From Anthoceros angustus (Eukaryota > Plantae > Anthocerotophyta): a stretch of DNA of 64,000 bases. A program made the translations under genes and the position numbers. Below the pieces are notes generated by a model. It did no database searches, was not told the origin of the DNA, and worked only from the letters and a program-made list of their open reading frames with translations. The stretch is from assembly GCA_010909165.1 (NCBI GenBank), contig MU008190.1, forward strand, positions 1 through 64,000, written 5' to 3'. Below, piece after piece: positions 9,500 through 43,209 of this stretch (the stretch's first letter is position 1; each line of letters starts with the position of its first letter).

Positions 9500-11225
9500 C
9501 AGTAATTCCATCGGACTTGAGTTTGGTCTTAAAGACCATTTGCAGCTAATCGGCTTACGACCTTCTGGTAGGTCTACTAACTCCCATGTGTGATTCGACG
9601 AGGGAGTTATATTCATCATCGATGGAGACCCGCAAGTGCTTGCCATCACGGCCATTCAGGGCTTCAGAGTACGACGGTGGATCTGGCCTAACATCCGAAA
9701 CATGTAAGTCTGAAACATTAGCAGCCTGTCTTCTGAAGTCAACTGCCTAATATGGGGGCTCAACCCATTCCTCACGTGATCGCCTTTCTCTTGTTGGGTA
9801 TCGAGGAGGAGGAGCAACTCCCACTTCAGCAATGGGCTCAACCTCAACCGAAACATCAAGGTCAGCAGCATCAGAAACATGATCTTCTGAATCGGATCTC
9901 GAAGATTGTAATGACTATTCATCATCTCCGGAGTCATGTGCATCAGCAGCAAGAGGAACAGCCTCACCCTCATCAACACATGGTTCCTGAGATTGTGGGA
10001 CCACGTCATCCAGACCAGCAAAATCGTCTTGAGAAGGAACCTCTCCGTCCGACACTGGATACTCATAAGGTACCTGAGGTTGTTGAATGTCCATGTCTGG
10101 GAAGAGCTCTGATGAAGATGATCTAGCACTGTCTGGATAATACAAATTCTGTACATGAGTATCAGACCTTGGTGTTGTCAGTTCTGTGAAGCATGCACTT
10201 CTAAACAAGGTAATCTTCGAAGTGACCGGGTCAAACAGTTTGTAAGCCTTAGACTCTTCAGAATCGTCTAGAAAAATTAATGGCTGTGACTTGTCATCTA
10301 ACTTCTTGCGTTTGGCTTCAAGTACATAGGCAAACGCTGGTGACCCGAAGACTCTGAGGTGTAAAAGACTTACCTTTCTCCCCCATAATGCTTCATATGG
10401 AGTTCTACCAGGTAGTGCCATAGTTACTACTATGTTGAGAATATAAGTAGCAATAATTATAGCCTCTGCCCAGAACGACTTTGGTAAAGCTGCCCAAGAC
10501 ACCATGCTTCTGACCATTCCCATCAACGTCTGATTTTTCCGTTCTGCAACTCCATTTTGTTGTTGTGTGCAAGGAACAGAAAGCCGACGTATGATCCCAT
10601 GTCTCTTAAACAGTTTGTCAAATCTGTGACCAGTGAATTCGCCACCGTTATCAGTTCGGAAACACTTCACCAAGTGACCAGTTTGGCGCTGCACCATAGG
10701 GATCCACGCAGAGATAGTTTCAAACACATCACTCTTCAGATGCAGCGGAAAAGTCCAAGTGTAACGAGAATAGTCATATGTCATTGTTAAGTAATACTCT
10801 GCTCCACCGAGAAACTTAACATGTAACTTCCCAGCAATATCAGCGTGAATTAGCTCTAGCACATGCTTGGCTCGAGTTGGATTCCTGTTTTTGAATGGTA
10901 ACTCTTCCTGTTTTGAGAGTATACAGGAACTACACGCTGCCAAATGCTTAAAACAGGAAGGTAACCGCTCACGATAGCAGGAGGAGTTAGCCATCAAATC
11001 AAGTTTGGAGCGGTTTACATGACCAAGACGAGCATGCCACAGGTTTGCTTGAGCACTAGACACAGCAAGCAAAGTCCTGAACCTTGATTTATGCACCGTC
11101 ACTAATTGATACAGGTCATTAACTAACACAGCCTTAGCAATGTATCCTGCAGGGTCTGACAGTAAGTAGATGTAACAAATGTCATCTTCGAACTTGAAAC
11201 CAAACTTTCGACTTTGTGTGGTCAC
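9500..11225 (-). mobile_element. Ty1/Copia pol fragment: GAG-pre-integrase, integrase core, SH3-like region, start of RT
   Basis: LWHARLGH...CSSC, LELIHADI, FRTDNGGEF, QQNGVAERKN, FWAEA, LRVFGS; then NHTWELVDLPEGRKPISCKW in ORF 9386..9655. Confidence 0.93.
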
Positions 11226-14965: not shown

Positions 14966-17900
14966 ATGGCGGATGCTGGGGGCGCGTTTGTGACCCGTGC
15001 CTTCGAGCGCATGCTGAAGGAGGCCAGCGGGAGGAAGCAAAGCAATCTGCGGGAGGCTCTCAAGGCTTATTTGGAGAGGTCGCAGACTCCAGATCCGAGT
15101 GATCTGCAGCATGCATCTGCCAATGAGGTGGACGTTGGGTCTCAGGCGTCGGAGAATGCTTCGGAAGGGGAGCCGGCAGCTCCGGCTGCTGCTGTGGAAG
15201 CTGCAGCAGTGCCTGCTCCTGTCCGGCCCGCAAGCACCGGCCAGTCTGCTGCTGCAAGTTTGGCGGAAGCAGGTCACAATTTGGACGGCTCTGAGGCAGA
15301 TCTGGTAGTTCTTCCACTGCGTCTCGCTATCGAGACCAAGCAGGCTAGGCTTGTCGAGACAGCCCTCGATTGCTTGCATAAGCTTATAGCATACGGGCAT
15401 TTGGGAGGGGAGGCTGGTGTTGAGGGTGGTAAGAATGGAGTTATGGCCACGCAATTGTTCACTCTGGTCTGCGGTTGTGCCGACAACAATGCATCCGATT
15501 CTGTAATTTTGCAGGTGATCAAGGTCCTCCTCACTGCTGTGGCTTCCAGTGCTTTCCAAGTGCATGGGGAGTGCCTCTTGACTGCGATCAAGACGTGTTA
15601 CAATATTGTCCTTAGCAGTAAGAATCCGGTCAATCAGGCCACCGCGAAGGCAACCTTGACGCAGATGATCAGCCTTGTATGCAAGAGGATGGAATCGGAG
15701 GCACAGAACGTCTCCGATCCGGGACGGGTGCAGGCAGCACCTGTTGAAGTAACCTCCAGCGGTAGTTTCGGGGAAGGTGACGGGAAATCTGATGCTGCCG
15801 AGAGCAGCCATCTTGGAGCTCCTGAAATAGGAGAAGCGGATTCTGCTTTGGAAAGCAGCTCGCCGAGTGCGTCGTACCCCGCACCTGTGACGCTTGAAGT
15901 TCTCCAAACTCTTGCTGTGCATGATGACATCAAGGGTCTTGAGGATGCGCTTGGGAAGGCAGTTCTGTCAGAGGGTGAAATGAAGACGGGGGGAGGTGCG
16001 GATCTAGAAAATCTGGCTGTGCATCAACGAGATGCACAGCTCGTGTTTCGCACTGTCTGTAAAATGTCCATGAAAGATGGCAATGATGACTTGGTCAACA
16101 GGAGCAGGATTCTCTCCCTTGAGCTTCTGCTGGGTTTACTGGAGAGTATGGGCAATTCCAACTCCCTGTTCCTGGACTCTGTGAAAGCGTACTTGTGCTA
16201 CGCGTTGCTCCGGGCTTGCGTGTCTGCCAATTCATCCATCTTTGAGCTCTCATGTGCCATCTTTAATGTGTTGTTACTCCGCTTCCGAGAGAGTCTGAAG
16301 GGAGAGATCGGAGTTTTCTACCCACTTATCATCTTGCGATCACTTGAAAGTCCCGAGAGTCCACTTCACCAACGGACGGTGGTCTTGAAGCAGTTGGAGA
16401 AGCTCTGCTTGAACCCTCAGCTCCTGGCAGATGTATTCATCAACTATGATTGTGATCTGAAAGCCACCAACCTGTTTGAACGGATGGTCAATTCTCTATC
16501 GAAAATGGCACAGGGGACTTTGAATCTGGAATCAAGTGGTGGTCAGGTAGCACAGGTCAACCCTCTAAAATTTTCGTCACTCCAGTGCCTTGTCAATGTT
16601 CTCAAGTCTCTCGTGCAGTGGACCGCCAAGCATCAGGAAGCCAGTGCAAGTTGGGATACTGTAGCTGCTGAAACTAGTGCAGGAGTTAGTGCTGCTGATT
16701 CTTCCAGGGGCTGGGCCAATTTCGATGGAATTGAGGCTGAGATCAAGGAAGAGACACAAGCCGACTTTGGCAGAGCCAAAGCACATAAGTCCACTTTGGA
16801 GGCCGCAGTGGCTGAGTTCAACCGCAAACCAGAGAAAGGGGTCAAATATCTGGTGGAGTACAAGCTGGCTGAAAAGGATCCGAAAGCTGTGGCACATTTT
16901 CTCAGATCAACTCAAGGGTTGAGCAAGGCAATGATTGGTGACTATCTGGGACAGCATGAGGAGTTTCCACTGTCTGTCATGCATGCTTATGTGGACGACT
17001 TCAACTTCACTGGCCTGAAGTTTGACCAAGCCATTCGCGAATTTCTCAATGGATTTCGTTTGCCCGGTGAAGCTCAGAAGATCGATCGCATAATGGAAAA
17101 ATTTGCAGAGCGTTTCTGCCGCAACAATCCAGGTCTTTTTAGGAATGCTGACACTGCTTATGTGTTGGCTTATGCCGTCATCATGCTCAACACAGATGCA
17201 CACAACCCCCTCGTGTCATCAAAGATGTCTAAAGCTGATTTTGTGAAGATCAATTCGGGCCAGCCTGGTGATCAAGAGGAAGAACATGCACCAAGAGAAC
17301 TCTTAGAGGAGATCTATGAGTCCATTGTGAGAGATGAGATCAGGATGAAGGATGATGGCACCAATGCCATCAGGAAGGATCCGAGGAGGAGAGATGCTGA
17401 AGAGAAGAGCAGATTGGTGGATGTTCTAAATCTTGGTCTGCCAAGGAGGAAGGCAGCTGTTGACACAAAAAAGGAAAGCGAGGAGATTGTGCAACGGACA
17501 CAGGATTTGTTCAAGAAGGGAGGGGTACAGAGTGGTGTCTTTCACGTCGCTAAGCAGATTGAGCTCGCTCGCCCAATGCTAGAAGCTGTTGGTTGGCCTC
17601 TGCTTGCTGCGTTTTCTGTCACCATGGAGGATAGTGACAATAGACCACGGGTTCTGTTGTGCATGGAAGGGTTCCGGATGGGTGTGCATTTGACCAAGGT
17701 TCTTGGCATGGAAACAATGCGCTATGCTTTTCTGACCTCCTTGGTGAGATTTACGTACACACATTCTCCCAGGGAGATGCGTACAAAGAACGTGGAAGCT
17801 CTGAAAACCCTACTTGGGATGGCGGAAAATGAACCTGATGCTTTGCAAGACACCTGGAATGCTTTACTGGAATGTGTTTCAAGGTTGGAGTACATCACCT

Positions 17901-20404
17901 CCTCGTCAAGTGTTGCAATAACACTCATGCAGGGTTCCAACCAGGTTTCCAGGGAGGCCCTCCTGCACTCCCTTGTTGAGCTCACGGGGAAGCCAACTGA
18001 ACAGGTATTTGTAAATAGTGTCAAGCTACCCAGTGATGTGATTGTGGAGTTTTTCACTGCTCTGTGCTCAATATCAGCAGAGGAGTTGAAGCAGTCTCCT
18101 CCTCGTGTGTTCAGTTTGCAAAAACTCGTTGAGATCAGCTACTACAACATCACTCGTATCCGTATGGTGTGGGCTAGGATATGGGCAGTTCTCTCTGTTC
18201 ACTTTGTAGCAGCTGGAAGTCACCCTGATGAGAAGATTTCCATGTATGCTATTGATTCACTGAGGCAGCTCGCCATCAAATACCTTGAAAGGGCGGAGCT
18301 AGCAAATTTCAGTTTTCAGAATGATATTCTCAAGCCTTTTGTGATCCTGATGCGAAACAGCAGGAGTCGAACCATACGAGCCCTCATTGTAGACTGCATT
18401 GTGCAGATGATAAAGTCCAAAATTGCTAGCATCAAGTCAGGTTGGCGGAGTGTCTTTATGGTATTCACAACTGCTGCAACTGATGAGAATGAAGCGATTG
18501 CAGATGTGGCATTTGAGAATGTTGAGCAGGTTATCCTGGAACATTTTGATCAGGTTGTTGGGGACTGCCTTATGGACTGTGTAAACTGCCTCATCGCGTT
18601 TGCCACCAACAAAGCCAGCTCTCGCACAAGTCTAAAAGCTATTGCTCTTCTCAGGATTTGTGAAGATCGACTTGCTGAAGGCCGTATACCAGGGGGTGCA
18701 TTTAGGGTAATTGAAGACACAGGGAAGGGTGCAGATCTGGAGGTGGCTGAATACTATTGGTTTCCTATGCTGGCAGGCCTTTCAGATCTCACCTCGGATC
18801 CTCGTGTTGATGTGAGGAACTGTGCACTGGAGGTGTTGTTTGACCTGCTGAAAGAAAGAGGTCACAAGTTCTCAAGTGCGTTTTGGGAGAGCGTCTTTCA
18901 TAGAGTGTTGTTTCCCATCTTTGATTATGTCAGGCATGCGGGAAAGGATGGTGAAAAGCCACCCTCTGCAGATCAGTGGCTTAGGGAGACATGCATCCAC
19001 TCCCTCCGCCTACTTTGTGATTTGTTCAGCACTTTCTACAAGGAAGTTTCATATTTGCTGCCGTCCTTGTTGGGATTGTTGATTGACTGTGCGACAAGAC
19101 CAGACCAAGCTTTGGCTTCAATTTCAGTTGCAGCTCTTGTCCACCTCGCAGAAGTTGGAGGGCATCAATTCAGCAGCAAGGACTGGACTACTCTGTTGGA
19201 CAGCATCCGAGAGGCATGTCAAACCACACAGCCGATTGAGCTTCTCAGTTCTAGTAATGGTGCCAGTCTTCGGACAGACAGTTGGTCAAGAATGAGAAAG
19301 CCGGGAACGTTGACCCCTCTTCACAGTTTCAGTGGAGACGTCACCCCTGGTAGTCATTCTGATCTAGGAACAACCTCGGATGCTGAGAGTTCTGAGCATT
19401 ATGAAAACGGACAAACCTATGCAGGGACACCCCACAGTAATGGAGGGCCACACTTTCGACAGTCTTTTCATGTACAGGAACGGCATGGTTCAGAAGCAGA
19501 AGAACTGTCAGCCTCAGAGAACAGGCAGTCGGGCGGCAGCCCTGTAGCTGGGCAGACCAGTGGACGAAGGTTTATGGGAAGTGTAATGGACACGCTTCTG
19601 CTGAAGAATTTCAAGGCGAGAGGTCGTCTAGCTGACTCTGCAGGTCTGTCAGCTGCTGCTCAGGTCGTTGATGCAGGAGAACAGATCCCTGAGGATGTTG
19701 AAGAGGATCCTGCCGTTCCTGTTGTAAGGACGAAATGTGTTGTCCAGCTATTACTCCTGGCTGTCATTGACAGCTTCCAGAAAAATCACTGGAGCAGATT
19801 TGAGCAGTCACACAAGATACTCATAATGGATACTCTCCTGTCTCTGGTTAATTTTGCGGCGTCCTATAACTCCAATGCCAATCTGCGAGCGCGTATGCAG
19901 CAACATTCTGGGGACAGGCCTCCACAGAACTTGTTGCGATTGGAGGTTGAGGCTACTCGGGTGTATCTCACCGTTCTCAATAAGGCTGCTGCTGTTGGTT
20001 CGAAGTATGAAGCTGTCGCCAACGGGACAAGGAGTCTTCCGCTGGTGGAATTGGAGAATGACATCGAGGATGAGGAGGTTGACAGGGAAGGGGACGAAAA
20101 GCTGAGAGAAGAATCGGAAAGGCGGCTGGTTGCCTTCTTTGGGCATATTCTGAAGGAGGCTGCGACTCTCCAGCCGACTCCTGGACATCCTGTCCAAGCT
20201 GACACGCGCAGATGCTTGGCTTTGCGGTCACCAGTTACAGTGAAGGTGCTAACTGCCATGTCTCAGATGGACAGGGGATTGTTCAAGAAGTACCTTCCCG
20301 AATTCTATCCATACTTCACGAAGCTCATCTGCAGTGAGCAGTTGGATGTCCGAAGGGCACTGGGCGACGTCTTCAAAGTACAACTTGTAGCTCTTTTGCC
20401 GTGA
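14966..20404 (+). CDS. BIG5: Brefeldin A-inhibited ARF guanine-nucleotide exchange factor 5 (BIG5/MIN7/BEN1-like), 1812 aa, intronless
   Basis: N-terminus GGAFVTRAFERMLKEASG; DCB and HUS (INYDCD) regions; Sec7 catalytic motifs FRLPGEAQKIDRIMEKFAERFC and YVLAYAVIMLNTDAHN; HDS domains; C-terminus TKLICSEQLDVRRALGDVF. Confidence 0.95.
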   Translation: MADAGGAFVTRAFERMLKEASGRKQSNLREALKAYLERSQTPDPSDLQHASANEVDVGSQASENASEGEPAAPAAAVEAAAVPAPVRPASTGQSAAASLAEAGHNLDGSEADLVVLPLRLAIETKQARLVETALDCLHKLIAYGHLGGEAGVEGGKNGVMATQLFTLVCGCADNNASDSVILQVIKVLLTAVASSAFQVHGECLLTAIKTCYNIVLSSKNPVNQATAKATLTQMISLVCKRMESEAQNVSDPGRVQAAPVEVTSSGSFGEGDGKSDAAESSHLGAPEIGEADSALESSSPSASYPAPVTLEVLQTLAVHDDIKGLEDALGKAVLSEGEMKTGGGADLENLAVHQRDAQLVFRTVCKMSMKDGNDDLVNRSRILSLELLLGLLESMGNSNSLFLDSVKAYLCYALLRACVSANSSIFELSCAIFNVLLLRFRESLKGEIGVFYPLIILRSLESPESPLHQRTVVLKQLEKLCLNPQLLADVFINYDCDLKATNLFERMVNSLSKMAQGTLNLESSGGQVAQVNPLKFSSLQCLVNVLKSLVQWTAKHQEASASWDTVAAETSAGVSAADSSRGWANFDGIEAEIKEETQADFGRAKAHKSTLEAAVAEFNRKPEKGVKYLVEYKLAEKDPKAVAHFLRSTQGLSKAMIGDYLGQHEEFPLSVMHAYVDDFNFTGLKFDQAIREFLNGFRLPGEAQKIDRIMEKFAERFCRNNPGLFRNADTAYVLAYAVIMLNTDAHNPLVSSKMSKADFVKINSGQPGDQEEEHAPRELLEEIYESIVRDEIRMKDDGTNAIRKDPRRRDAEEKSRLVDVLNLGLPRRKAAVDTKKESEEIVQRTQDLFKKGGVQSGVFHVAKQIELARPMLEAVGWPLLAAFSVTMEDSDNRPRVLLCMEGFRMGVHLTKVLGMETMRYAFLTSLVRFTYTHSPREMRTKNVEALKTLLGMAENEPDALQDTWNALLECVSRLEYITSSSSVAITLMQGSNQVSREALLHSLVELTGKPTEQVFVNSVKLPSDVIVEFFTALCSISAEELKQSPPRVFSLQKLVEISYYNITRIRMVWARIWAVLSVHFVAAGSHPDEKISMYAIDSLRQLAIKYLERAELANFSFQNDILKPFVILMRNSRSRTIRALIVDCIVQMIKSKIASIKSGWRSVFMVFTTAATDENEAIADVAFENVEQVILEHFDQVVGDCLMDCVNCLIAFATNKASSRTSLKAIALLRICEDRLAEGRIPGGAFRVIEDTGKGADLEVAEYYWFPMLAGLSDLTSDPRVDVRNCALEVLFDLLKERGHKFSSAFWESVFHRVLFPIFDYVRHAGKDGEKPPSADQWLRETCIHSLRLLCDLFSTFYKEVSYLLPSLLGLLIDCATRPDQALASISVAALVHLAEVGGHQFSSKDWTTLLDSIREACQTTQPIELLSSSNGASLRTDSWSRMRKPGTLTPLHSFSGDVTPGSHSDLGTTSDAESSEHYENGQTYAGTPHSNGGPHFRQSFHVQERHGSEAEELSASENRQSGGSPVAGQTSGRRFMGSVMDTLLLKNFKARGRLADSAGLSAAAQVVDAGEQIPEDVEEDPAVPVVRTKCVVQLLLLAVIDSFQKNHWSRFEQSHKILIMDTLLSLVNFAASYNSNANLRARMQQHSGDRPPQNLLRLEVEATRVYLTVLNKAAAVGSKYEAVANGTRSLPLVELENDIEDEEVDREGDEKLREESERRLVAFFGHILKEAATLQPTPGHPVQADTRRCLALRSPVTVKVLTAMSQMDRGLFKKYLPEFYPYFTKLICSEQLDVRRALGDVFKVQLVALLP

Positions 20405-20682: not shown

Positions 20683-21606
20683 ATGGCCGCCTTGCCTCTG
20701 CTTTTTGCGTTGCTGACGGGATTGGCAATGTTCGAATCAGGAGACGCTTTGCCGTTCATTGTGTTACATGGAATCGGCGACCAATGCAAGAATTCAGGCC
20801 TCGCCGGACTCACCGAGTTCCTGAGCACTGCAACAGGCACCCAAGGCTTTTGTATCGAGATCGGCAATGGAGCAAGTGACTCCTTCTTCATGCCCATGGA
20901 GAAGCAGGCGGAGGCGGCGTGCAGCTCGGTGAAGGCGATCCCCGAGCTCAAGGAGGGTTACAACATAGTGGGATTGTCGCAAGGGAATCTGGTAGGGCGA
21001 GGATTGATCGAGTGGTGCGATGGCGGACCTGCTGTTCACAACTTCATCTCCATCGGCGGGCCGCATGGTGGCACGGCCTCCGTCCCCGCCTGCACCACCC
21101 TCACCATTTGCATTCTGGTTGACGCCGTGATCAAGCTCGGGGTGTACACGGCTTACGTGCAGAACCACTTGGCTCCGGCAGGCTATGTGAAGATCCCCAA
21201 CGACTTGGAGCATTACTACAAAGGTTGTCTGTTTTTGCCCAAGCTCAATAACGAGCTTCCAGCCAGCCGCAACGCCACCTACAGGGAGCGCATGGCCAGC
21301 ATCGACCATCTCGTGCTGATCATGTTTGAGATGGACACCATAATCTTGCCCCCCGAGACTGCCTGGTTTGGCTTCTTCGCTGACAATAACTTCAACACCA
21401 TCTTGCAGCCGCAGCAGACCGCCCTTTACGTCGAGGATTGGATTGGGCTGCAGGTGCTGGACAAGTCTGGGCGTGTCAGCTTCGTCGCTTTGCCGGGTAA
21501 TCACCTCGACATATCTCAGGCTCAACTCTTGCAGCATGTTGTTCCATACCTCAAGATAACTTCAGTGCCACGCACCTTCGTCTCGAAACTTGCCATGGCT
21601 CTTTAG
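20683..21606 (+). CDS. Palmitoyl-protein thioesterase (PPT1-like), intronless, with signal peptide
   Basis: ATG at 20683 followed by a hydrophobic leader MAALPLLFALLTGLA; LPFIVLHGIGDQC; nucleophile GLSQG; FISIGGPHGG; DTII; LYVEDWIGLQVLD; GNHL. Confidence 0.92.
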   Translation: MAALPLLFALLTGLAMFESGDALPFIVLHGIGDQCKNSGLAGLTEFLSTATGTQGFCIEIGNGASDSFFMPMEKQAEAACSSVKAIPELKEGYNIVGLSQGNLVGRGLIEWCDGGPAVHNFISIGGPHGGTASVPACTTLTICILVDAVIKLGVYTAYVQNHLAPAGYVKIPNDLEHYYKGCLFLPKLNNELPASRNATYRERMASIDHLVLIMFEMDTIILPPETAWFGFFADNNFNTILQPQQTALYVEDWIGLQVLDKSGRVSFVALPGNHLDISQAQLLQHVVPYLKITSVPRTFVSKLAMAL

Positions 21607-30164: not shown

Positions 30165-30240
30165 TGGGGTTCGCATTCGGAGGACAGCATAGGGTCCTTA
30201 CGGCCGTGGAGGAAGGACAAGCTTCTCCACTCTTGTATGG
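30165..30240 (+). repeat. Inverted fragment of the CHAT gene 5' coding region
   Basis: The + strand reads GFAFGGQHRVLTAVEEGQASPLLY, versus VFAFGGRHRVLTAVEELREVPLLLY in the minus-strand CHAT ORF. Confidence 0.8.
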
Positions 30241-30269
30241 GCCCGGACGCAGGGGAAGGTAAGATACGT

Positions 30270-32045
30270 AGGCCCTTCAAAATTTTCAACAGCCTCCGTT
30301 TCTCGGCCGCAAGAGAGCAGTGCTACTCGCCGGAGCTTGTCTAGAGCCTGGTTCGTCCGTTTCAACATGCCACCAGGAACGCACGGTTTCCGACCTGTCG
30401 CTGATGGTCCGCATCGCCTCTGAGTAAGAGCTATGAGTCACCAGGGCCATGCATACGGGGGCCAAAAGGATGGGCACATGCGCCTGCCCGCTACAATCCC
30501 GAAGCATGGCATGTTTCCGCAGCAGGGTTTCCACCCACGTGATGCCCTACTCAACTTTCATCGTGATGGAAGACGTGATAATCGCCCCTGCCACCTCCGA
30601 GCCTGTAGAACCTACGGCGAGGTTGACGGCCTGGTGCAGTATTACTAGCAGGTCACGCATCTCCAGGCACACAACCAAAATCGACTCCTCTTCGTCTCCA
30701 CACGCGATGAGCTCGTCAGCTAGCACATGGGGACGAAGCCTCACCCACCCATCAAGTGCCGGTGACAATGCTTCCAACATAAGCTTGAGCTTCGCTGCCA
30801 GTGGCCGCACAATCACACGTTTCCCAAACTTGTCCCCAACACCGTCACGCTCCCAAAACTCCTCCTCTGTAGTGCAGTGCTCCTTGCAGAAAGAGATATA
30901 CGAGAGTCGAGGAACTTCTGCCGGAAGAACCCCATGGTGTCCGCCCTTACCCTTGCCCCTGCCATGATTGACTTGTACTGCAGTTGGAAACTCCATGGCA
31001 ACCTGTCTGTAGACTGAAGGCCAGTAGCTGAATGTAGAGCTCGAAGATGGTTCCACGAACCGGAAGATCAACCTTGGAAGCTTCCTAGCATCCTAATACT
31101 CAGGACTGCCTTGCAAGTCCTGGCACCTACATGTATTGCTGAACCCCGTTGCCCACCCTGTTGACGTGGACCATGCGCTTCTCGGCTGGCCGGCAGATGC
31201 CTTTACACACGCTACCCGGCTGGCTGTCGCCGACAAGAGACTGTGGAGTTGCTAAGCAATACCGGAGACGGAACCAGCCAAGCCGCCGTGAGTTGGCAGA
31301 ACCTCAGTAATTCCATCAGATTGGGTTCTTGCAAGGCTGTCCGGCTATTCCCCGATGAGGATGGAGCTTTACTGAAAGGGCGTCCTGACATGGACGACTC
31401 TGTCCCAACCCTGGGCCAGCACGAAGCGGACACAACACGAGCAATCATGAATAGTACCTGGATTTAAGACTTGGGAGCCTTCTTTAATGTTAATCCACCA
31501 CCCACGCACACTACCAAGACTGACGTATGTCTCACTGGAACTGTTACACATCCAGACCTTAGCCACGGAAAGGTCAAGTCCCATCTCACGAGCTTGGGAC
31601 ATACAGTGAGTTAGTGGAGTTCCACCTCTGTAACAGCTGGTTGTAGGAGTATGCCCATGGCACTCCAGCCACATTCATTCTTTCCATCGTGCAGTCATTC
31701 AGCAATACTAAGAATCAAACTCTTCAAACTGTCGCATGTTATCCAGTCACGTTCTATGTCATGTTATGCATACGTACACAGGAGGTGGAGCCTATGCCCT
31801 GATGGGTCCAGTTGGGCGTGCAAGGCCTCTGCAAGGCCTGGGGTGTCAGGTGACCATGCTGGAGGCTCAGCTGCAGGTTGGGATGACGATGCCGTGGGCT
31901 TCTATGTTTCTGGGGATTCCTGGAAAAAGGTGGGTTTCGCTCTTCTTATTCACCTTGGTATCTGACAGATCAAAGGAATTGGAAATAAAACTGTGAATCT
32001 GTTTGTAACCTGCATCTTGGGTTGTGTTGGTGGCGGATTACTTCT
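30270..32045 (-). pseudogene. Truncated paralogue of the CHAT gene (N-terminal ~240 codons plus ~1 kb upstream)
   Basis: Collinear with 35117-36960. ATG at 30996 (MEFPTAVQVN); premature TAG at 30547-30549 (MKVE* versus MKVLW); similarity ends near 30270, before the CHAT domain. Confidence 0.88.
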
Positions 32046-32141
32046 GGAGAAATTGAATCATGGGACATCAAAAATTTAGGCAAGGAGGGGAAACTGGAGA
32101 AGGCACTGTTGCATGGATGAGCAGGGTAGTGTGAGGCCAAA

Positions 32142-32300
32142 GTGGTACATGTTCATTTAGAAATATGTGGGCTGGAATTGAACAGACTTTTGGATGTCGT
32201 GGTAACCACGTTGGTGAACTGTGGAGGCCTCGAGGATGGGCTGGAAGTGTTCCAGAGGTTGTCACAGAGACCTGTTGTCTCGTGGACTTTTTCCCGCCTA
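32142..32300 (+). pseudogene. PLS-class PPR repeat relic
   Basis: VHVHLEICGLELNRLL...VTTLVNCGGLEDGLEVFQRLSQRPVVSWT. Confidence 0.6.
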
Positions 32301-32560: not shown

Positions 32561-35500
32561 TCATATTTGGAGTTTGGAGATGGACGAAGCAGGCTCCAAT
32601 GCAGGGCCTCTCCGCATCTGAGGTGGTAAGCAGACTGTGGGCAAGCCAGTTACTACAAACGGAGCTATTTGATGGAGGGTGTACTTCCCAGCCTGGTGCA
32701 TCTTGATCATGGCAGATTGCAAGGCCGAGCAGGCGTCCTCACCTTGGCTTAGTGCCTCGTAAAACAGAACCATGAGATGCACAGCGGCACTATCATCTAC
32801 ACGCCATTGAGCCAGAACAGAACAGGGAACTCCTGCGTTCATGAATGCCCGACTGAAGCTCAGGACATCGAGCTCGTTGAAGTCAGGGGTTACTCCAACA
32901 GCCGTGTCACAGGCGCTAAGGACTACCATGTAAGCACACCACTCCGAACCTGACAACATAATATCATCGCAGTGCAAGCTGCCTCCGACATCTGAGCTGT
33001 GTAATCCGCGAAGAAGTCGAGGACGAAAGCTGTCCAAGCCTTCCGCTGCGGTATCCGACTCAAAAGCCTTTTGCCGCAACATGTGGTGCCAAAAAGGTAG
33101 GGCATCTGAGGAGACCCAAGCCTCAGGTTCATAGCTCTCTTCATCCGAGGACGTAGATCCCTCGTCATCCCTCATTACCTGAAGCTTGCCCTGTGCTGCT
33201 CGGCGTCTCCTTTTGCTACGGGTGGCAGCTGAGGCCAAGCGGAGAGTCCCGTGATCAGATTCCTTGCCACCGGAGCCGTGTGCTGCGATATGGATGAAGG
33301 CTTGGCTGCATTGGGTGCCACTTCCCACACCTGAGGGCTTCTTCGCCCACTCCAACAGCCTTTCTACCGTAGCATCATCATCCAACAGCTTCACAATCTC
33401 ATGGTCAGGGCTACAAAAATCGAACAGCTCGCATATGGCGTCCACTTCCTTCCGACTTCCCGGCAACGAACTTTCTTGGTAAGGCAAGTATTGAGGATCT
33501 CCCAAGGCCACTGCAGCCCCTGCACCGGCAAGCAAGGTCCTCCCTTGGAGTGACTCATACCGCAACTGACACAAGTCGAGGACCAGGAAAGATGGTGTGA
33601 AGGTCAGTTTCGCCTCTTGGAAAAGGTAGCAGCCAGAGTCTTTGTTCCTGAGAATGCTGAAAGGCACGTCCTGGAAACAGCCAACCGCGGAGATAACCAA
33701 CTTGCGATGCGGGTTCCAATTCCAGTCCCGAATGAAGCTGCGGAAGAGTGGCCTGATGAGCAGGTCGTACAACGTCTCCAGGGCATTTCTGCAGCAGTCA
33801 CTCTCAAGCTTCCTCTCAAGACAAGCATCAAAAATTTCCCGGACATTTTGTAGAACACTGTCCCTGTCAATCCGCTCCAATCTGTGGCACGAGGCCACAC
33901 CTGCATCCTGCACCACAATGCACACGTCCGACATCCCTAAACCCTTGGCCGGGTCCAGCAGCTGAAAACCTCCTGCGAACTGCACAAACACTGCACCAGG
34001 CCCGCACGCCCGGTGGGCTCGTTCCATCCATTTCCAGTCGATGTTGGGCCAGAATTCCTTTCGTTTGTGATTCCTAGCACTCTCGAGAGACAGTAAAGCT
34101 TGGCGGGCAACCGCACCAAGTGCCGCTTCTGCGTTTGGCGCCAAAAGCTTCAAGACGGTGTCCGCCACGGCATGAATGGTAAATAGCAGGGAGTATGGAA
34201 GCCACGGACCGCTAAAATTCATCTTGTTGTCATGACTCAACAGTGACAATGAGGCACAAGACTGCTTGTAGCATTCCCAGAATGCCTCCAGCACAGCCTT
34301 GCTGGGGCTCAATGCAGGCACAACAGAGGGGATGAACGTAGCAGGACCCGAGAATCCACAAACAGCCCAAACTGTCCGAATGAAGGAATTGGCAAGAGAC
34401 GTAGGTGACAGGAACCCCCCGTGCGCAACAGCAAATGCGTGGAGCCTATCAACCCTGTCGAGGTCAACAACCATGTTGTCCATATCTCTCCCGCTTAGAC
34501 CAATACAACTGCCCCTAATCCTTTCCTCCAACAGCCTCACCGCGTCGTGACCATAAGGGGTAGCAGCGGCAAGACATGTCTCAAATGCTTCCAGCCCCTC
34601 CTCGACCTGACCGAAGTGGACTATTAATTGCACTGCTCGTAGCAGAAGGCAAGCAAGCGCATACCGGGCTTGCTCTGGCCCAATCTGAGGTACTAGGACC
34701 TCTGGCTTAATCTCAGGTACTAATTCCTTGAGCTGCCAACCTGTCCTGCGTCTTTCTGCCAAATATTCCAGTATCTCCAACTTCAGGTATAGCATGAACC
34801 GGAGCTGAAGATCAATCTGTTGAACCTCGTTCAATACTTTGTCAGACACCTGGTTACTCAACTCGGCCCGACCGAACCATGTTAAGTACTCCGCCTGGAC
34901 AGTGAGGACCTTCAGTCTGACAAGTAGCCAGTGCTCATGGTCCCGCGGAACAGCTCTTTCAGCGCGTTGAAGCCAATACAGACACCTGTTTCCAACCTGG
35001 CTCATGTCAGCAATGCCATAGCTAACGTTTCCTGTCCCCCCATAGCTAAGACGGGGGGTATAAATGTCGCAGGTGGCAACACGCAGAAAACAAGCTTCAA
35101 AACCTCTCCAGTAATCTGGCCCTTCAAAATTTTCAACAGCCTCCGTTTCTCGGCCGCAGGAGAGGAGTGATATTCGACGGAGCATGTCGAGTGCCTGTTT
35201 CGTCCGCTTCAACATTGGAGGCCACGAGGAATGCACGCTTTCCCACCTGTCGCTGATGGTCCGCATCGCCTCTGAGTCTGAGCCATGACCCACCTGGGAC
35301 ATGGGGGCCCAAAGGATGGGCGCATATGCCTCCTGGCTACAATCCCGAAGCATGGCATGCTGCAGCAGTAGGGTTTCAACCCAAGTGAAGGCCCACAAAA
35401 CTTTCATCGTAACGAAAGACCTGACCATCGCCTCGGCCAGCTCCGAGCTTGCAGAACATATGACGAGGTCGACGGCCCGCTCCACTAGCAGTAATAGGTC

Positions 35501-35881
35501 ACGCAAATTCTGGCACACATCCAAAAATGAGTCCTCTTCGTCTCCACACGCGATGAGCTCGTCAGCTAGCACATGGAGACGATGCATCACCCACCCTTCA
35601 AGTCCCGGTGACAATGCTTCCAACATAGGCTTGAGCTCCGCTGCCGGTGGCCGCACAATCCACAGGCCCTCACCATGGTCCCAAAACTTGTCCCAAACAC
35701 CATCAAGGTCCCAAAACTTCTCTTCTGAAGGGTAGTCCTCGATGCAGAGAGAGACATACAAGAGTAGAGGAACTTCCCTCAGTTCCTCGACGGCCGTAAG
35801 AACCCTATGGCGCCCTCCGAATGCGAACACCTTACCCGGGCCCCTGCCAAGATTCACCTCTACTCCAGTTGGAAACTCCAT
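32561..35881 (-). CDS. CHAT-domain (caspase/HetF-like, clan CD) cysteine protease with a long helical N-terminal region, ~1106 aa, intronless
   Basis: ATG at 35881 in a gccATGG context. CHAT motifs LYDLLIRPL, VPFSIL, TFTPS, ALGDP, LPGSRKEVDAI, DATVE, FIHIAAHG (His), MVVLSACDTAVG (Cys), SRAFMNAGV, QWRVDD, FYEAL, ALQSAM, APFVVTG. Confidence 0.9.
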   Translation of the reverse strand: MEFPTGVEVNLGRGPGKVFAFGGRHRVLTAVEELREVPLLLYVSLCIEDYPSEEKFWDLDGVWDKFWDHGEGLWIVRPPAAELKPMLEALSPGLEGWVMHRLHVLADELIACGDEEDSFLDVCQNLRDLLLLVERAVDLVICSASSELAEAMVRSFVTMKVLWAFTWVETLLLQHAMLRDCSQEAYAPILWAPMSQVGHGSDSEAMRTISDRWESVHSSWPPMLKRTKQALDMLRRISLLSCGRETEAVENFEGPDYWRGFEACFLRVATCDIYTPRLSYGGTGNVSYGIADMSQVGNRCLYWLQRAERAVPRDHEHWLLVRLKVLTVQAEYLTWFGRAELSNQVSDKVLNEVQQIDLQLRFMLYLKLEILEYLAERRRTGWQLKELVPEIKPEVLVPQIGPEQARYALACLLLRAVQLIVHFGQVEEGLEAFETCLAAATPYGHDAVRLLEERIRGSCIGLSGRDMDNMVVDLDRVDRLHAFAVAHGGFLSPTSLANSFIRTVWAVCGFSGPATFIPSVVPALSPSKAVLEAFWECYKQSCASLSLLSHDNKMNFSGPWLPYSLLFTIHAVADTVLKLLAPNAEAALGAVARQALLSLESARNHKRKEFWPNIDWKWMERAHRACGPGAVFVQFAGGFQLLDPAKGLGMSDVCIVVQDAGVASCHRLERIDRDSVLQNVREIFDACLERKLESDCCRNALETLYDLLIRPLFRSFIRDWNWNPHRKLVISAVGCFQDVPFSILRNKDSGCYLFQEAKLTFTPSFLVLDLCQLRYESLQGRTLLAGAGAAVALGDPQYLPYQESSLPGSRKEVDAICELFDFCSPDHEIVKLLDDDATVERLLEWAKKPSGVGSGTQCSQAFIHIAAHGSGGKESDHGTLRLASAATRSKRRRRAAQGKLQVMRDDEGSTSSDEESYEPEAWVSSDALPFWHHMLRQKAFESDTAAEGLDSFRPRLLRGLHSSDVGGSLHCDDIMLSGSEWCAYMVVLSACDTAVGVTPDFNELDVLSFSRAFMNAGVPCSVLAQWRVDDSAAVHLMVLFYEALSQGEDACSALQSAMIKMHQAGKYTLHQIAPFVVTGLPTVCLPPQMRRGPALEPASSISKLQI

Positions 35882-36170
35882 GGCAACCCGTCTGTAGACG
35901 TAAGGCCAGTAGCTGAAGGTGGAGCTCGTAGACGGTACCACGAACCAGAGAATGGAGGTCTTTCTTGCATCCTAAAACTGAGGACTGCCTTGCAAGTCCA
36001 GGCACCGACCTGTATTTCTGAACCCAGTTGCTCCCCCTGTTGACGTGGGCCACGCGCTTCTGCCCTGGCCGGCAGATGCTTCTATACACGCTACCCCTCT
36101 GGCTGACGCTGACAAGAAAATGTATAGTTGCCGTACATTAGCGGCACCAAGTCCATCTAGGCAGTAGGTT

Positions 36171-36283
36171 TAAAGCTCCATCCTCATTGTAGAACAGCCA
36201 GACAGCCTCGAAGGCTGTCCCTCAGTTTCCATCACCTTGGGCTCAAGGCTGTCCGACTGTTCTACAATGAGGATGGAGCTTTA
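36171..36283 (-). ncRNA. Long hairpin (candidate miRNA/siRNA precursor or 5'UTR structure)
   Basis: 27-bp perfect inverted repeat (36171-36197 / 36257-36283) extended by gacagcct/aggctgtc; the intervening mismatches become G-U pairs on the minus strand. Confidence 0.45.
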
Positions 36284-39200
36284 CTGAAATGGCGTCCGAC
36301 ATGGGCGACCACGATGCGGACAACCCTAGCTACCATGGACATCACCAGGAGTTTCACCTGGGAGCCTTCTTTGCTGTTGAGCCACCACCCACGCACTCTA
36401 CCAAGCCTGACATTTCTAATGTCTCACTGGAACTGTAAGACATCCAGACCTTGGCCACGGAAAGCTGAAGGCCCACCTCACGAGCTTGGAACATGTAGTG
36501 ACAAGACTCTGATCAGTAGAGTTCCACCTATGCAACAGCTGGTCGTTGGAGTATGCCCGTGGCACTCCAGCCACATTGATTCTTTCATTCGTGAATATTC
36601 AGCAGCACTGAGAATCAAACTCTTGGAAATGTCGCAAGTTATCCAGTGACTTTTAATGTCATGGTATGCATACGTATTGAGGAGGTGGAGTCTATGGCCC
36701 GATTGGTCCAGTTGTGCGTGGAATTGTGCCCTCTGCAAGGCAGACGAACAATGAGTGGGCATGGAGTGTCAGGTGACCATGCCGGACGCTCAGCTGTAGG
36801 TTGGGATGACTGATGCTTCATGCTTCTATTTTTCTGAAGACTCATAGAAGGTGGGTTTTGTGTGTTTTTTCACCTTGGTATCCGCATATCAAAGGAACCG
36901 GAAGTCAAACTGTAAATCTGTTTGTAACCTGCATCTTGGGCTTTGTAGGTGGCGGATTACGGAAATCAGTGGAGGTAATTACCTATATAATAATTTGAAT
37001 ATTAAATAATTTTAGATATTACAAGTATTTTCTAGATAAGATACGTTCTTATTGAGATAGAAGTTAATATGCAATCATTGAGCTCTAGTACCAAGTGGGC
37101 AGTTTCTTTCCTCTTTCCTCACATGTAGTCTGTGGTAACATTACAATATTATTGTTTCATACTAGATGACCTTGGTAGTCATTTTAGAGCATAAATATGT
37201 AGACCTTCTCCAAAGGTAACATATTTTACTTTAACATGTTTCGTTTGTGGTACATTACAACATAATCGTTTCATACTAGACAATCTTTGTAGTCCTTTCA
37301 AACCATAAACCAGCTAAGCCTTCTTGAAACTAATAACATCAAGCACTTAGACCTTCTTGAAAATGACTAAGATCATGTTCATAAACCATCTTGAAAAACG
37401 ACTCACATCATGAAGTTATTAGTGTATATGGATTGTATCTCCTAGTATTTATTTGTGCATATTATTATTTTGTATATAGCAAGTAATCATGGTGTTGAAT
37501 TGTGCATGTTGTTAGGGATATCAAAAAATGATCAATTATCATTATGTTACAATTGCTTTGCTGTTATCAATCTTCCTTGCTTTCCTTATCAACCATCCAA
37601 AACCTTCAAATAAATATGAATAGGAAAGTAACAAACTTGTACTTTTGGAACGTTTCTCATAGAAACAAAAATTGAATTTGGAAGTAGCAAACTTATAGTT
37701 CCAAACCTTCCTCTCTCTACTCTTATTCTTACAATCCAAAATCCAAATTAACGATGTAGGGTTTAGGGTTCGTAAGACCCAAAAAGATAAACCCTAAATG
37801 CTCTATTATCATTAAATTCACCCCTTTTATATTAGGTACCGCAGGGCCTTCCTATTTTCGATGGAAAAATAATTATTTTTAAATTTAATCATTTTATTTT
37901 GTTAATTAATTATTAAAATTTTAAAATATTAATTTCATATAAACTCAAAATGCTTCCAGCCAGGGTATCCAAAAGCCATCCCTGATCTCACGAGCTCTGG
38001 CTATAGCTGCCAGATCTGCACCAACTACCTATGTGGCTATGTGGTGCTCTCCCTTTGGAAATAGCAAATAGTCGAGGGTAAAAAAGAGCACCCTCGTTGC
38101 ACAGCATGTTGGTGTTGTGTTAGGATCTTTGTTGGGTCTCCCGGTTGTGCTTCACCTACACCAGCTATCCCTGCCTACCATGTAATTTTACATCTGGAGC
38201 AATTGCAGTTGGTGTGTGGCTGACATCAAAATTATAGAAGTAGGGTCCTCTCTTCAAGGAGTGATATGGGTTCTTTGGAACTCCAGAGTCCAGCGTCCTT
38301 GGGAGGGATTAATACTCAGATGGGGTGCTACGCATTCCCCAGTCCTCAGCTACAAATCATGCCCTTAGTCTCCGCAGCCCTCCATATTGCAAACTCCAGT
38401 TGTTAGAGACCTTCGGAGTTACTCTGGGCCAAAAAAACTCCCAGTGCCGTACATCAATGTATATTTTGTAATCTCCATATAAAGTCTCCAAATTCTCTAA
38501 ATAAAAATATATATGTAGGTATTTCTAAACTCCCCATTTGAGTAACTTAGGGTGGGTTAGCATGCTCACATAACTTGCCCAAACTTGCCCAAAACCCAGG
38601 CATACGACAGAACGTATTCAATGTCATTTGCCATTCTATTTGCCTGAGCCAGCCAAAACCACCGAGTGTATTTTTAGTGGGTCGTCAAACAACCAAGCTA
38701 CAAGGTTGTTGGGTGACCGGTGCCGAATAGGTACATTTCCGTTAACGGAAGCCGTGCATCATATTAAGGATGGGTGGGATTCGGATTATATAACAAGACC
38801 AAAGACCAACCCTTTAGTTGTGGCCTCACTATTTCGTAGGCGCCCTCATCCCGTGTTCATGCGCTCCACAAGGCGCACTTCACACTTCATATCGTCAGGA
38901 GTCCTCAAGCTTGTCCGCATCTCCAGTGAAGGATGTTCAATATATTGGCCACAGTCGGGCGACCCACTGCACAAGCTACTCAGGACAAAAGAACTGCTTG
39001 TGCTGGAGAGGAGCCACAAGGTGGTGAGCATGAAGAATAACACCCTAAGCTCGTCTGAGGTGAGTGACTTCTTCAACCGTTTCATAGATTAGGACTGATG
39101 GCCATCCTTCCCTTCCACATTGCAGACCATCCCATTGTGTATGGCACCCAGGACCTCAACAATGTCACAGTGGAAGAGAATGATTACCATGGAGGAGCGG

Positions 39201-39619: not shown

Positions 39620-41215
39620 CGTACGAGCAACGAGTCTTTTCTAGGAGGTGACCAGCATCCTGATGCGAAAAAAATGGGATGAAACCCAATTGTTGGTGTT
39701 GGTGGCCATATGTATGCGCAGAGACAATGTCATGAAGTATAGGGGAGAAGAAATTAAAGAGAAAACCACCACTGCAGAAGCGAGATGGCAAGGTGTTGCT
39801 GCAGCTTGTGCTGCACGAGCAATGAGTCTTTCCTAGGAGGTAGCCAACATCCTGATGAGCGAAAAAAATGGGATGAAACCCAATTGTTGGTGTTGGTGGC
39901 CATGCACAGAGACAATATTATGAAGCACAAGGAAGGAGAAACTAAACAGAAAACCACCATTGCAGAAGCGAGATGGCAAGGTGCTGTTGCAACTTGTGCT
40001 GCTTTGAGCGTTTATTGCACCCCAAATCAGTGTAAGGATAAGTGGGAATCGTGCATGACTGACTTGAATGAGATTGCTGATTGGGAAAGGCCTGGTGCTC
40101 ATTCAGGCAAGAGTTCGTTTTGAAGTATGGATAAGACACAACGAGAAGCCCACAGGTTACCAACATCATTCTTCCAGAGTGTGTATGATGCCATCGCAAC
40201 ATTCATGACTACAAAGCCCTGGATGGATGTGGGACCATGGACTCTAGCAAGCCTCCTTCTAGCAATTCTGGCGATGTGTCTGAAGACTTTGAGTTGTTTG
40301 GGAACAGTGGGGTGGCTTTAGGGATACATCAACAACAACGGCATCTGCCAAAGCTAGAATCAAAAGAACAACAAGGAACGGTAACGCCATGATAGCTTTA
40401 TTGTCAAAATTAGAGAGGAATAATGTTTAGGTTGTGTCTATTGCAAAACGGCCGAAGATCAACGGCATGTCCGACATGTTGGCAAGATGGTCATTGAGCG
40501 TGAGAAGATGGCAGCATATGCGAAAATTATAGATGAATAAAAAATGTTACATCAAATTGAGGCAGGAAAGGGAGAAGTCACAGCATTCACTGAGATCTCG
40601 GCTTCCATCAGAAGCTTAGGGGTCTCAATAGTGGAAGCCGCATGTATAAGAAGGGCTGAAGCATTGCATCACACAGCTCACATAACATCCGTCTCAATTC
40701 AATGGTTTTCTTCCTCCCATAAGTGTTGCATCAAAAGAGCTTGTAAACGGTGACTTTTGGGGCTGGCAAGTGGCACTGCTCATAGTCCTGGCCCATTCCG
40801 AGAGATGAGGTTGTCATCATTAGGATGAAGCAACCGGGGGTTCAACTAGTCACCTTGGGTAATCCGTATGTTGTGTAGCATACAACATATGTAGACGCTT
40901 AACTGAAGTGTTCGACATTGCCGTTCCAAAATTTTTGTCCTAAAATGTGCCAAACATTCTTCAAAGTACCAAATGCACCTTCACCAACCATTCTTGTAAT
41001 AGAGTGTTTAAAGTTGAATGAGTCCAGCTCTCGTGAGTGACCATGTCCTGAGTATGGTATGATTAGCCAAGTGAGAAGAGGGTACCCAACATAACCAATG
41101 ATATACTCTCGAATATCATGACCACTATTGTCAACTATTGCTACCCCACATAAACCTGTGTCCAGCATTGGCCAAGTGAGAGAATCCACTATTGCACAAA
41201 ATGCGCATGTCATTC
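39620..41215. mobile_element. Degenerate PIF/Harbinger element: Myb/SANT (trihelix-like) ORF on + and DDE transposase fragment on -
   Basis: + strand: RKKWDETQLLVLV...ARWQGAVATC...PNQCKDKWES...LPTSFFQSVYDAI, with a stop and a ~190-nt tandem duplication at 39622-40002. - strand: YIIGYVGYPLLTWLIIPY...FNFKHSITRMVGEGAFGTLKNVWHIL. Confidence 0.85.
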
Positions 41216-43209
41216 GCAGCTCTAGGCCTGATGAAATACTATAATTATTAGGGCACTATTCATTTGGGCTCATATAAATATCTAGAATTAATAATTAATT
41301 AATTTCTAGGGCTAGAAGTAGTTACATTAGTTGATAATTAAGTTATAACAACTAATAACCAACTTTGAACAAGGTATCCTAAGACCTGGAGACAAACCCC
41401 TCTTTTTAGAGACAGAGGTCAAAATTTTACCTTTGAAATGAAATCAAAACATGATTTTGAGGGTATTCTAGAAACAAGGGTCCAAAGACACACATCGCGC
41501 CCGACCCAGGGTTCTTCGAAGCACCATTTCTAGCTTCATCATGCCATTTGATCTTGCAAATAATGGTCTTTGGTTGGATCAAGTTTGATAATACCTGCGT
41601 TTTTAGCACTTTTAAGGACATTTTTCCAAAATCGGGTAGTCTTTTAGAATATGCAAGTTTGTGACAATTTTTGAATATATGTACTAAGTAACAAAGTACA
41701 AACGTGACTAACGTTGTGGATACAATACCTTTGCTTCACATTCTCCTTATTTGCCTGACATCCCCAAACGGTGTTCATAAGTTTGTGGCAACATGAAAGT
41801 TCAACTTCAATATGTCATTCGGTGTCCAAGTGGGAAATTAGATGTATAATTTACCAAAATGTAAACAAATTAATTGCCCTTCTACACATTCGCATTCCGG
41901 AATACATGAAACAATTTGTATTTAAAAACAAAACACTGGCGGACCACCAGGCACCCGACGCCGGGCTGCTTTACTTCAATTATTAAAAGGGTATAGCTTA
42001 ACCATTGGCAAGTGCCGCCACGAAGCGAAAGTCAGAACGGGGGCTATGTGAACGAAAGCCGTTGGCCAAAAACCGGATGTCCGGTGAGCACCAGCCACCC
42101 CGATGCTAAAACTGAAACAATTGAAAACTATGTGCCTCAGGTCGAAGTCCAAAGTGTGTGTAAAGGATTCAACAAAGCCACTGTTATCGATTCTGTGAGC
42201 ATTTGTGGCGCTAAACCAAAACCAGATGTGCGGATCCTAGGCTAGTCTCCTAAGCTGTACATCCTCTATGCTTGAATACGCCACCCAAACAAGGAAACAA
42301 CACTAACAGCATAAATCAGCAGCATCAATAGTGCCAACAACATTACATTTTCTGTAACAGCACCATCAAATACTCGTAATAGAATAGATTTTCAGCAACA
42401 GCAATGACAGCAATATCAGTAGGGACAGCAACATCATTAGGCCAGAAAACCAACTTACCATCATCACTCTGGCTCAGCCTTCACGGTCACTCCCTTCGCT
42501 GTTGCCAATGCCTTCGCAGCAGTTTCTACTGCTGCCATCACCAGGGCAAGTTCCCAATGCCTCTTTTTCGTGGCCCAGACAACGTCTTCAGCATCCAACT
42601 CCTCTTTGAACAACTCCCACATCTCCGGCTTCACTACCAAATACAGTTTAAATATCCGTAGCTCGCTATGAGCTGTCTTCACCTCCTTCCCAGCCAATCT
42701 CAGGCACCTTTAATGTTTATATGAAATTCATATAAACATTATGTACTTTCTATTATGTTCAGTCAATGAATAAGATCCTTTGAGCAAGTCCTTGATTCTC
42801 TTCATGGTATCAGAGTATACTTGCTCTCAACTTGCTCATGCAACTACAAGCATCTAAGGAGCTACTTTAAGAGGCAACACCTAATCTAGGATTTTATAGA
42901 ATGGAGTTTGACTATGCTCGAAATGCTCCCTTTGAATGTATTTCATTTATATACATATTTCTTCTCTGACAATGCAACATTTCCCTTGTCTAATTTCCAT
43001 GGATTTTTTTTATCCCTACGAGAAATAGGCAATGGATTAGCAGAAGACATAGACCTGAAAAACAAGAAGCACAGAGTAGAAGCCATGAGGTTAGAAGCAA
43101 TAAGAAATTTGATGTAATTGATAGAGAAATCAAAAGAACCTCTTATTACATTTTTAGCTTCATTGCCTCTATTCTCATTTCGACGACCTATCTCTATTAG
43201 AGGACCCTT

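Follow-up and report, generated by a model that had tools for sequence, protein, structure and literature searches.

Lists of the clan CD proteases of land plants usually comprise metacaspases, legumains, separase and glycosylphosphatidylinositol (GPI) transamidase. In reports on the closest described systems, the catalytic dyad of Csx29 is mispositioned until a change in the tetratricopeptide repeat (TPR) region realigns it (PMC10028731), the isolated CHAT domain of a fungal TPR-CHAT protein drives gasdermin processing (PMC8851545), and coral TPR-CHATs expand tandemly in regions that are also NACHT-enriched (PMC12314368). A CHAT protease gene was examined in a 64,000-nucleotide (nt) stretch of the Anthoceros angustus genome (GenBank assembly GCA_010909165.1, contig MU008190.1, positions 1 to 64,000), referred to here as the window. 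It was found to be a real, intact plant gene, and its product groups with proteins of seed-free plants and the alga Chara.

The gene is a single open reading frame (ORF) on the minus strand (coordinates 32561–35881), which runs from an ATG to a TGA with no internal stops and encodes 1106 amino acids (aa). The product matched the Pfam CHAT family (PF12770, clan CD) at a score of 132 bits (cut-off 24; E 3.7e-38), and this was the sole Pfam family found at E ≤0.1, with no match to the Peptidase_C50 (separase) or C14 (metacaspase/caspase) profiles. A sequence search of the PDB gave no real match. A preliminary description of this DNA, which had reported an intact, intronless CHAT ORF of about 1106 aa with an intact His-Cys dyad and had proposed the Pfam search as a check, was borne out in each respect, and the strand can be added. 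In a simulation of frame survival, 0 of 2000 copies were still open when 8% of sites were mutated and 5 of 2000 at 4%. As the simulated copies nearly all close, it is not by chance that a frame of 1106 codons stays open, and selection is needed.

The dyad residues, His868 and Cys991, are located in H-x-x-x-H and V-L-S-A-C motifs (IHIAAHG from residue 863 and VLSACDT from residue 987). Cys991 does not vary among the 15 rows of alignment A1 or the 27 rows of alignment A3, and His868 is conserved in most of the rows that cover this position. The two residues are separated by 123 positions that include a charged insert (15 S/T, 14 D/E and 14 K/R residues, with one run of basic residues), modelled mostly at a predicted local distance difference test score (pLDDT) below 50. 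Spacings of 60–184 were found in 19 parsed rows of the plant clade described below, after two mis-parsed rows and one unparsed row had been set aside, whereas the median in the outgroup was 47 (105 of 126 rows parsed) and only 5 rows exceeded 70. The variable His-Cys insert is a trait of the plant clade, and its extreme is a Chara braunii protein (P0073) with a spacing of ~535 inside the CHAT domain.

An AlphaFold2 model, built on the 27-row alignment, was confident over most of residues 615–1090, including the core around the insert, and was weak and all helix over residues 1–610. Foldseek ranked Csx29, DdvA and separase first for the CHAT model. In VIA comparisons, Csx29 (7y9x_B) aligned to residues 613–1083 with a Z of 29.3 (root-mean-square deviation 3.2, 321 residues aligned) and separase (5fby_A) gave a Z of 28.2 (3.2, 326 residues), whereas caspases and a metacaspase reached a Z of only ~12. 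As the caspases align mainly from residue ~775, and Csx29 and separase from further forward, residues ~610–1090 are predicted to resemble in fold the Csx29 and separase unit of a pseudo-caspase followed by an active caspase, with the boundary between the two halves at about residue 780. The sensor-plus-protease layout proposed earlier is supported as an architecture, namely a predicted helical front and a predicted caspase-fold CHAT unit. The front is likewise predicted to be helical here and is unrecognised, but it is about 600 aa long rather than ~700 aa, the protease module starting from residue ~610.

Homologues were sought among 1.84 billion representatives, which gave 12,269 matches at E ≤0.001, and the best 150 were inspected. 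A further, lossy search yielded four distant CHATs and missed known members of the plant clade, and has no bearing on range. The plant names among 30 proteins looked up were Riccia sorocarpa (two proteins), Ceratodon purpureus, Sphagnum jensenii, Adiantum capillus-veneris, Chara braunii and a Physcomitrium patens cluster; no seed-plant name was among these 30, most rows being nameless and no direct seed-plant search having been made. These relatives are 29–41% identical to the Anthoceros protein, over the protease region only, and are often multi-copy, which is not the pattern of a conserved single-copy orthologue across land plants that would have spoken against novelty.

A CHAT region of at least 200 aa was obtained from 158 of 178 proteins, and 149 of these, left after 9 near-duplicates were dropped, were used for a FastTree phylogeny, after which a streptophyte CHAT clade was drawn. 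Two subsets were then analysed using IQ-TREE, one of 72 rows with half of the Chara domain, and one of 71 rows that used the full Chara region and also took in one metagenome ORF and six named bacteria. In the 71-row tree, for which the bootstrap had not fully settled, the Anthoceros protein was located in a clade of 22 rows (with five named land-plant and 16 unnamed rows) at 99/90, and Chara was sister to this clade at 95/86; the corresponding values in the 72-row tree were 88/51 and 97/89. The named members of the clade are from Riccia, Ceratodon, Sphagnum and Adiantum. An approximately unbiased (AU) test rejected placement inside a cluster holding Symploca and the coral row (p 7.7e-9), a group that was picked after viewing the tree. 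The sister group of the plant clade was not resolved in either the 72- or the 71-row tree, and neither contained a row identified as fungal. A second plant CHAT lineage was found outside the clade, formed by the Physcomitrium cluster (P0144/P0179, P0075), with 2112 aa and two CHAT stretches.

Ten of 80 metagenome loci were examined for introns. The gene was split across frames in L001, L002, L004 and L006, and partly in L040, and was a single 1173-aa ORF in L003. Relative to L003, L002 has three GT-AG introns within the protease region, roughly 170, 580 and 270 nt long, and gaps at the L002 intron sites were found in L004 (two) and L006 (one). In their best segments the moss-like loci share 61–84% identity with the Sphagnum protein, and L001 shares 54%. 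As moss-like loci carry introns in the protease region, the family is an ordinary spliced eukaryotic one, and the Anthoceros copy likely became intronless through intron loss or retrocopying. Genes for Sec7/BIG and palmitoyl thioesterase have many introns in Arabidopsis. In the window both are also single ORFs, indicating that the lack of introns is a local habit and no sign of transfer.

As a liverwort, mosses, a fern and the alga Chara are among the sources of its closest relatives, the gene was likely inherited and not recently borrowed from microbes. The phylogeny proposed in the preliminary description thus supported a plant clade, while the horizontal acquisition suggested there was not supported for any recent or lineage-specific event, given the clade, the AU test and the introns in relatives. 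This rejection does not extend to an ancient event before the split of Chara and land plants, which the sequences neither show nor exclude.

The N-terminal region, for which structure prediction had been proposed earlier, was predicted with low confidence to be all helix and has no recognisable homologue. No N-terminal homologue was found among 7999 shorter candidates, by a profile made from 18 plant N-terminal pieces, or in the best 150 of the 12,269 matches, all of whose best stretches begin no earlier than residue 616. The N-termini of moss-like and liverwort members partly match (E down to 1e-19), whereas that of the Anthoceros protein matches neither. Atlas matches for this region (0.87–0.91) are leads only and lean towards TPR, and the region is likely a degenerate TPR-like solenoid. 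Extra domains occur in relatives, with PP2 above the cut-off in P0012, a weak ZZ match in P0015 and weak UIM/TPR matches in P0016. In the P0012 cluster, the nearest full-length relative in the tree, the PP2 lectin-like domain is ahead of the helical and CHAT regions.

The N-terminus changes fast, with local duplication and decay. The adjacent truncated paralogue and the inverted fragment reported previously were both confirmed. The truncated copy, 1.5 kb from the intact gene, shares 58% aa identity with residues 1–220 and continues in a different frame for residues 223–257, the damage consisting of a single TAG stop in frame at codon 163 and the loss of 5 nt. It is part of a duplicated block (30271–32041 versus 35118–36960; 76% nt identity) that takes in the first 257 codons and ~1 kb of upstream DNA, in which no codon periodicity and no long ORF common to the two copies was found. 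The inverted fragment is 80% identical to 35755–35831 at the nucleotide level and spans residues 19–40.

The ratio of non-synonymous to synonymous substitution rates (dN/dS) proposed as a check was 1.12 between the two N-termini (95% bootstrap 0.72–1.93, 234 codons), and four of the five indels between them are in frame (12, 15, 12 and 6 nt). The in-frame indels and the dN/dS of ~1.1 indicate that most of the divergence of the dead copy took place while it was still a coding gene, under little amino-acid constraint. Differences between the ORF and related contigs, mostly in the protease half, were synonymous in 13 of 28 cases versus ~24% expected (p 0.008), though these 28 come from 40 of 1427 contig rows selected by the tool.

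Four of 15 listed public runs, from three coded organisms, were compared, and related contigs of 82–95% identity were present in all four. Single positions in the protease half were covered by up to 3, 6, 9 and 12 related contigs in the four runs, a pattern that suggests a multi-copy family but does not number its members. The birth-and-death evolution proposed previously is supported by these contigs together with the dN/dS and the in-frame indels. In one public DNA run, which may be the source sample, near-exact contigs extend over 30701–32263, 34201–34825, 35248–35561 and 35731–37000. At several sites in the protease half, the window's own letter was found in none of the listed contigs, though such holes prove nothing.

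No run on record as RNA and containing the gene was among those listed. Run X1, which like X6 is only guessed to be RNA, has exact contigs over 33977–34825, 34799–35147, 35547–36508 and 30701–31404. One related contig has a depth of 1279 in X1 versus 19 in DNA run X2 from the same sample, as RNA would give. These contigs and depths are a weak hint that the CHAT locus is expressed. The contig of depth 1279 represents a third version of the upstream region that is not linked to the other two (matching 36344–36577 and 31332–31413), and suggests a highly expressed transcript carrying that upstream sequence.

The interpretation that we would put first, though with considerable reserve, is that the gene encodes an autoinhibited, ligand-gated endopeptidase of the seed-free-plant and Chara clade that cuts one specific protein, probably in defence or cell-death signalling. 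A self-inhibited resting enzyme is suggested by analogy with Csx29 (PMC10028731) and fungal TPR-CHAT (PMC8851545). The helical region would keep His868 and Cys991 misaligned at rest, and binding of a ligand or partner would realign them. The charged insert may add control through phosphorylation, localisation or self-cleavage. The substrate would be encoded elsewhere, because none is adjacent, and new N-terminal variants would be born by duplication and then lost. A role in surveillance is favoured over the alternatives considered below because a variable front is combined with a conserved catalytic back, and with duplication and decay.

Several observations weigh against this interpretation. 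Known CHAT proteins include some with non-immune roles (HetF, separase and TTC28). The term TPR-like sensor is weak, because no TPR was matched by Pfam in the 1106-aa protein, a profile of the other plant N-termini scored it at -1.5 bits, below several of 200 shuffles, and both models of the region are of low confidence (pLDDT mostly <60 with AlphaFold2, and 41.9 in a single-sequence model of residues 71–610). A W-A-E-R-x-R junction motif, present in 7 of 11 other full-length members of the plant clade examined, is unmatched here. No NB-ARC, NACHT or AAA match was found by Pfam, leaving the protein without an NTPase domain. PADLOC gave 0 matches for 4 proteins, and no gasdermin or pore-former was found among 110 (23 + 87) translated ORFs of the window, where diverged or spliced genes could escape. 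A dN/dS near 1 fits relaxed constraint equally well, and the 28 differences come from the limited, tool-selected set of contig rows.

The first alternative is a regulated protease with a developmental role, in the formation of sperm or gametangia, cell division or programmed cell clearance, and not in immunity. All of the named host plants have flagellated sperm, and the named members (Chara, Riccia, Ceratodon, Sphagnum and Adiantum) include 0 seed plants. Ciliary central-pair chains were also recovered in the fold searches, with lower Z (17.2 and 16.4). HetF is reported to coordinate division and differentiation (PMC9457339) and TTC28 to act in cytokinesis (PMC12314368). However, an N-terminus that is unrecognisable between lineages, with a dN/dS of ~1, tandem decay and mixed extra domains, would be unusual for core developmental machinery, and this alternative, though a serious one, is rather unlikely.

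It is less likely again that the family is functional while this copy is dispensable or attenuated, either drifting or silenced and heading to loss. The unmatched junction motif, the N-terminal dN/dS and the dead sister copy are in line with this, as are 12 ATGs in the 627 nt upstream of the gene and a strong hairpin ~290–400 nt upstream of the ATG, by which silencing might occur. The hairpin has 41-nt arms that are 93% complementary (-84.6 kcal/mol, z -11.7), and its sole Rfam match, MIR1094, was below threshold (29 bits versus 80). The truncated copy has only one arm, and as the 3' arm is missing from the duplicated block, a local inverted duplication is the likely origin of the hairpin. Two 21-mers of the hairpin pair with the upstream arm of the truncated copy (penalty 3.5–4), so that members of the family could be targets of small RNAs from it, as a young precursor. 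Against a drifting copy, the frame is still open over 1106 codons, which no copy achieved in the simulation at 8%, the dyad is intact, and a run from another organism contains a 2679-nt contig along 33515–36144, in which 246 letters differ and 38 are gaps.

A non-catalytic scaffold, in which cutting is lost despite the retained dyad, owing to the long insert or an altered pocket, and the protein acts through binding, is in line with a His-Cys spacing of 123 as against the outgroup median of 47, but is improbable given the invariant Cys, the His kept in most covering rows and the confidently modelled core around the insert. Recent bacterial or fungal transfer, contamination or misassembly is hardly credible and largely refuted, as the single exon and the numerical majority of CHAT matches resembling prokaryotic TPR-CHATs are outweighed by the plant clade, supported in trees with no row identified as fungal, the AU test, the introns in relatives, the plant housekeeping flanks, a G+C content at third codon positions of 0.58 that is within the range of five neighbours (0.50–0.75), and the near-exact contigs of the public DNA run over much of the locus.

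The window is plant nuclear DNA (features are listed in the table). Its other genes include those for a Copia integrase, Sec7/BIG, a palmitoyl thioesterase, a class II tRNA synthetase that has a GAD domain and is fragmented (spliced), AMPK1_CBM, UPF0176, a succinate dehydrogenase iron-sulfur-type protein and a PPR protein with an E motif. The intronless Sec7/BIG and thioesterase genes are beside the intron-rich tRNA synthetase gene, as in patchy gene-wide intron loss or retroposition in the genome. About 4 kb upstream of the CHAT gene are Myb/SANT (plus strand) and DDE_Tnp_4 (minus strand) remnants of a PIF/Harbinger-type transposon (39758–41255), which may have helped local rearrangements. 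A Copia-type integrase fragment (9915–10994, minus strand) is followed by nested tandem and inverted repeats (11385–13643), and direct repeats of 0.4–0.85 kb with 85–89% identity are found at 3234–5211, with low-complexity ORFs that have no Pfam match. The PPR protein (54328–57321, minus strand) is 997 aa long with a terminal E motif and no DYW match, and is likely an organellar RNA-editing factor.

Table. Features of the CHAT locus and of two neighbouring intronless genes in the window
Feature	Coordinates	Strand	Basis
Full-length single-exon CHAT protease gene, 1106 aa	32561..35881	-	ORF and Pfam
N-terminal region, residues ~1–607, predicted all-helical, low confidence	34061..35881	-	Model and searches
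Predicted pseudo-caspase half, residues ~608–780	33542..34060	-	Boundary inferred from starts of Csx29/separase versus caspase alignments
Predicted active caspase-fold half, residues ~781–1090	32612..33541	-	Pfam, model and fold searches
Catalytic His868 codon, HIAAH motif	33278..33280	-	Motif and alignments
Charged His-Cys insert, ~85 residues, typical of plant clade	32987..33241	-	Alignments and model
Catalytic Cys991 codon, VVLSAC motif	32909..32911	-	Motif and alignments
Truncated pseudogene copy of residues 1–257, one stop and one frameshift	30264..30996	-	Sequence comparison
Co-duplicated upstream DNA of truncated copy, matching 35882–36960	30997..32041	-	Sequence comparison
Inverted fragment of gene start, beside truncation point	30166..30239	+	Sequence comparison
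Long hairpin ~290–400 nt upstream of ATG	36171..36283	-	Folding
Complete Sec7/BIG gene, 1812 aa, all domains in one ORF, no introns	14966..20404	+	ORF and Pfam
Complete palmitoyl-thioesterase gene, one 307-aa ORF, no introns	20683..21606	+	ORF and Pfam

No literature on plant CHAT proteins was found by title or start of abstract, subscription journals and genome-paper supplements being outside this scope, and the earlier suggestion of an undescribed system agrees with the literature covered, in which no description of the plant clade was found. Members are already auto-annotated in databases, and the plant branch of TPR-CHAT-like proteases is old and apparently unstudied. It adds to land plants a further clan CD branch, at least as old as the split of Chara and land plants, with a distinctive insert in the catalytic domain. 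A broader proposal, possible though doubtful, is that seed-free plants and Chara retain overlooked single-chain sensor proteases, in which fast-evolving helical or accessory domains would detect microbial or damage cues and activate a CHAT unit that executes defence or cell death. If true, this would be a protease-based branch of immune receptors parallel to NLRs and apparently lost in flowering plants, and if the protease route is real, seed-free plants would gain an unstudied path to defence or cell death. The family bears on which proteases execute plant cell death and on the nature of early land-plant immunity, and is directly testable in moss, liverwort, hornwort or fern models.

Among known systems, separase (ESP1, peptidase C50) has a two-part protease fold behind an alpha-solenoid, to which the predicted layout of the Anthoceros protein is similar. 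However, Pfam assigns the Anthoceros protein to CHAT and not to Peptidase_C50. Separase is longer, conserved and essential, while the Anthoceros protein is fast-evolving and belongs to a multi-copy family. Csx29/TPR-CHAT of type III-E CRISPR (Craspase) and DdvA share with it, as modelled, a helical N-terminus followed by pseudo- and active-caspase halves with a His-Cys dyad, and Csx29 is the best structural match to the model at a sequence identity of about 14%. Craspase differs in its Cas7-11, Csx30 and sigma-factor partner, which are absent from the window, where the flanks are plant housekeeping genes and transposon remnants. No recognisable TPR was found in the Anthoceros protein, and the His-Cys spacing in Csx29 is 43 (H615/C658; PMC10028731), as against 123.

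The fungal Q2L-6 protein, paired with gasdermin Q1-6 (PMC8851545), is likewise eukaryotic, of the ~1000-aa class and with a C-terminal CHAT domain; its repeat-type N-terminus is comparable with the putative TPR-like front seen here, and it is presumed repressed at rest, as would be the Anthoceros protein; it differs in its gasdermin partner, as none was found alongside the Anthoceros gene, and common ancestry is not shown. Coral TPR-CHAT and animal TTC28 were the top Atlas feature matches (0.97), and resemble the Anthoceros family in tandem birth-and-death expansion and variable N-termini, though the coral row is outside the plant clade and canonical TPRs are described for the coral and TTC28 proteins (PMC12314368). 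The auto-annotated 'CHAT domain-containing' proteins of Riccia, Ceratodon, Sphagnum, Adiantum and Chara differ in that their N-termini partly match one another and not that of the Anthoceros protein, and in that the moss-like genes have introns, but they share with it the clade, the His-Cys insert and a C-terminal 'APF-V-G-P...LP' tail.

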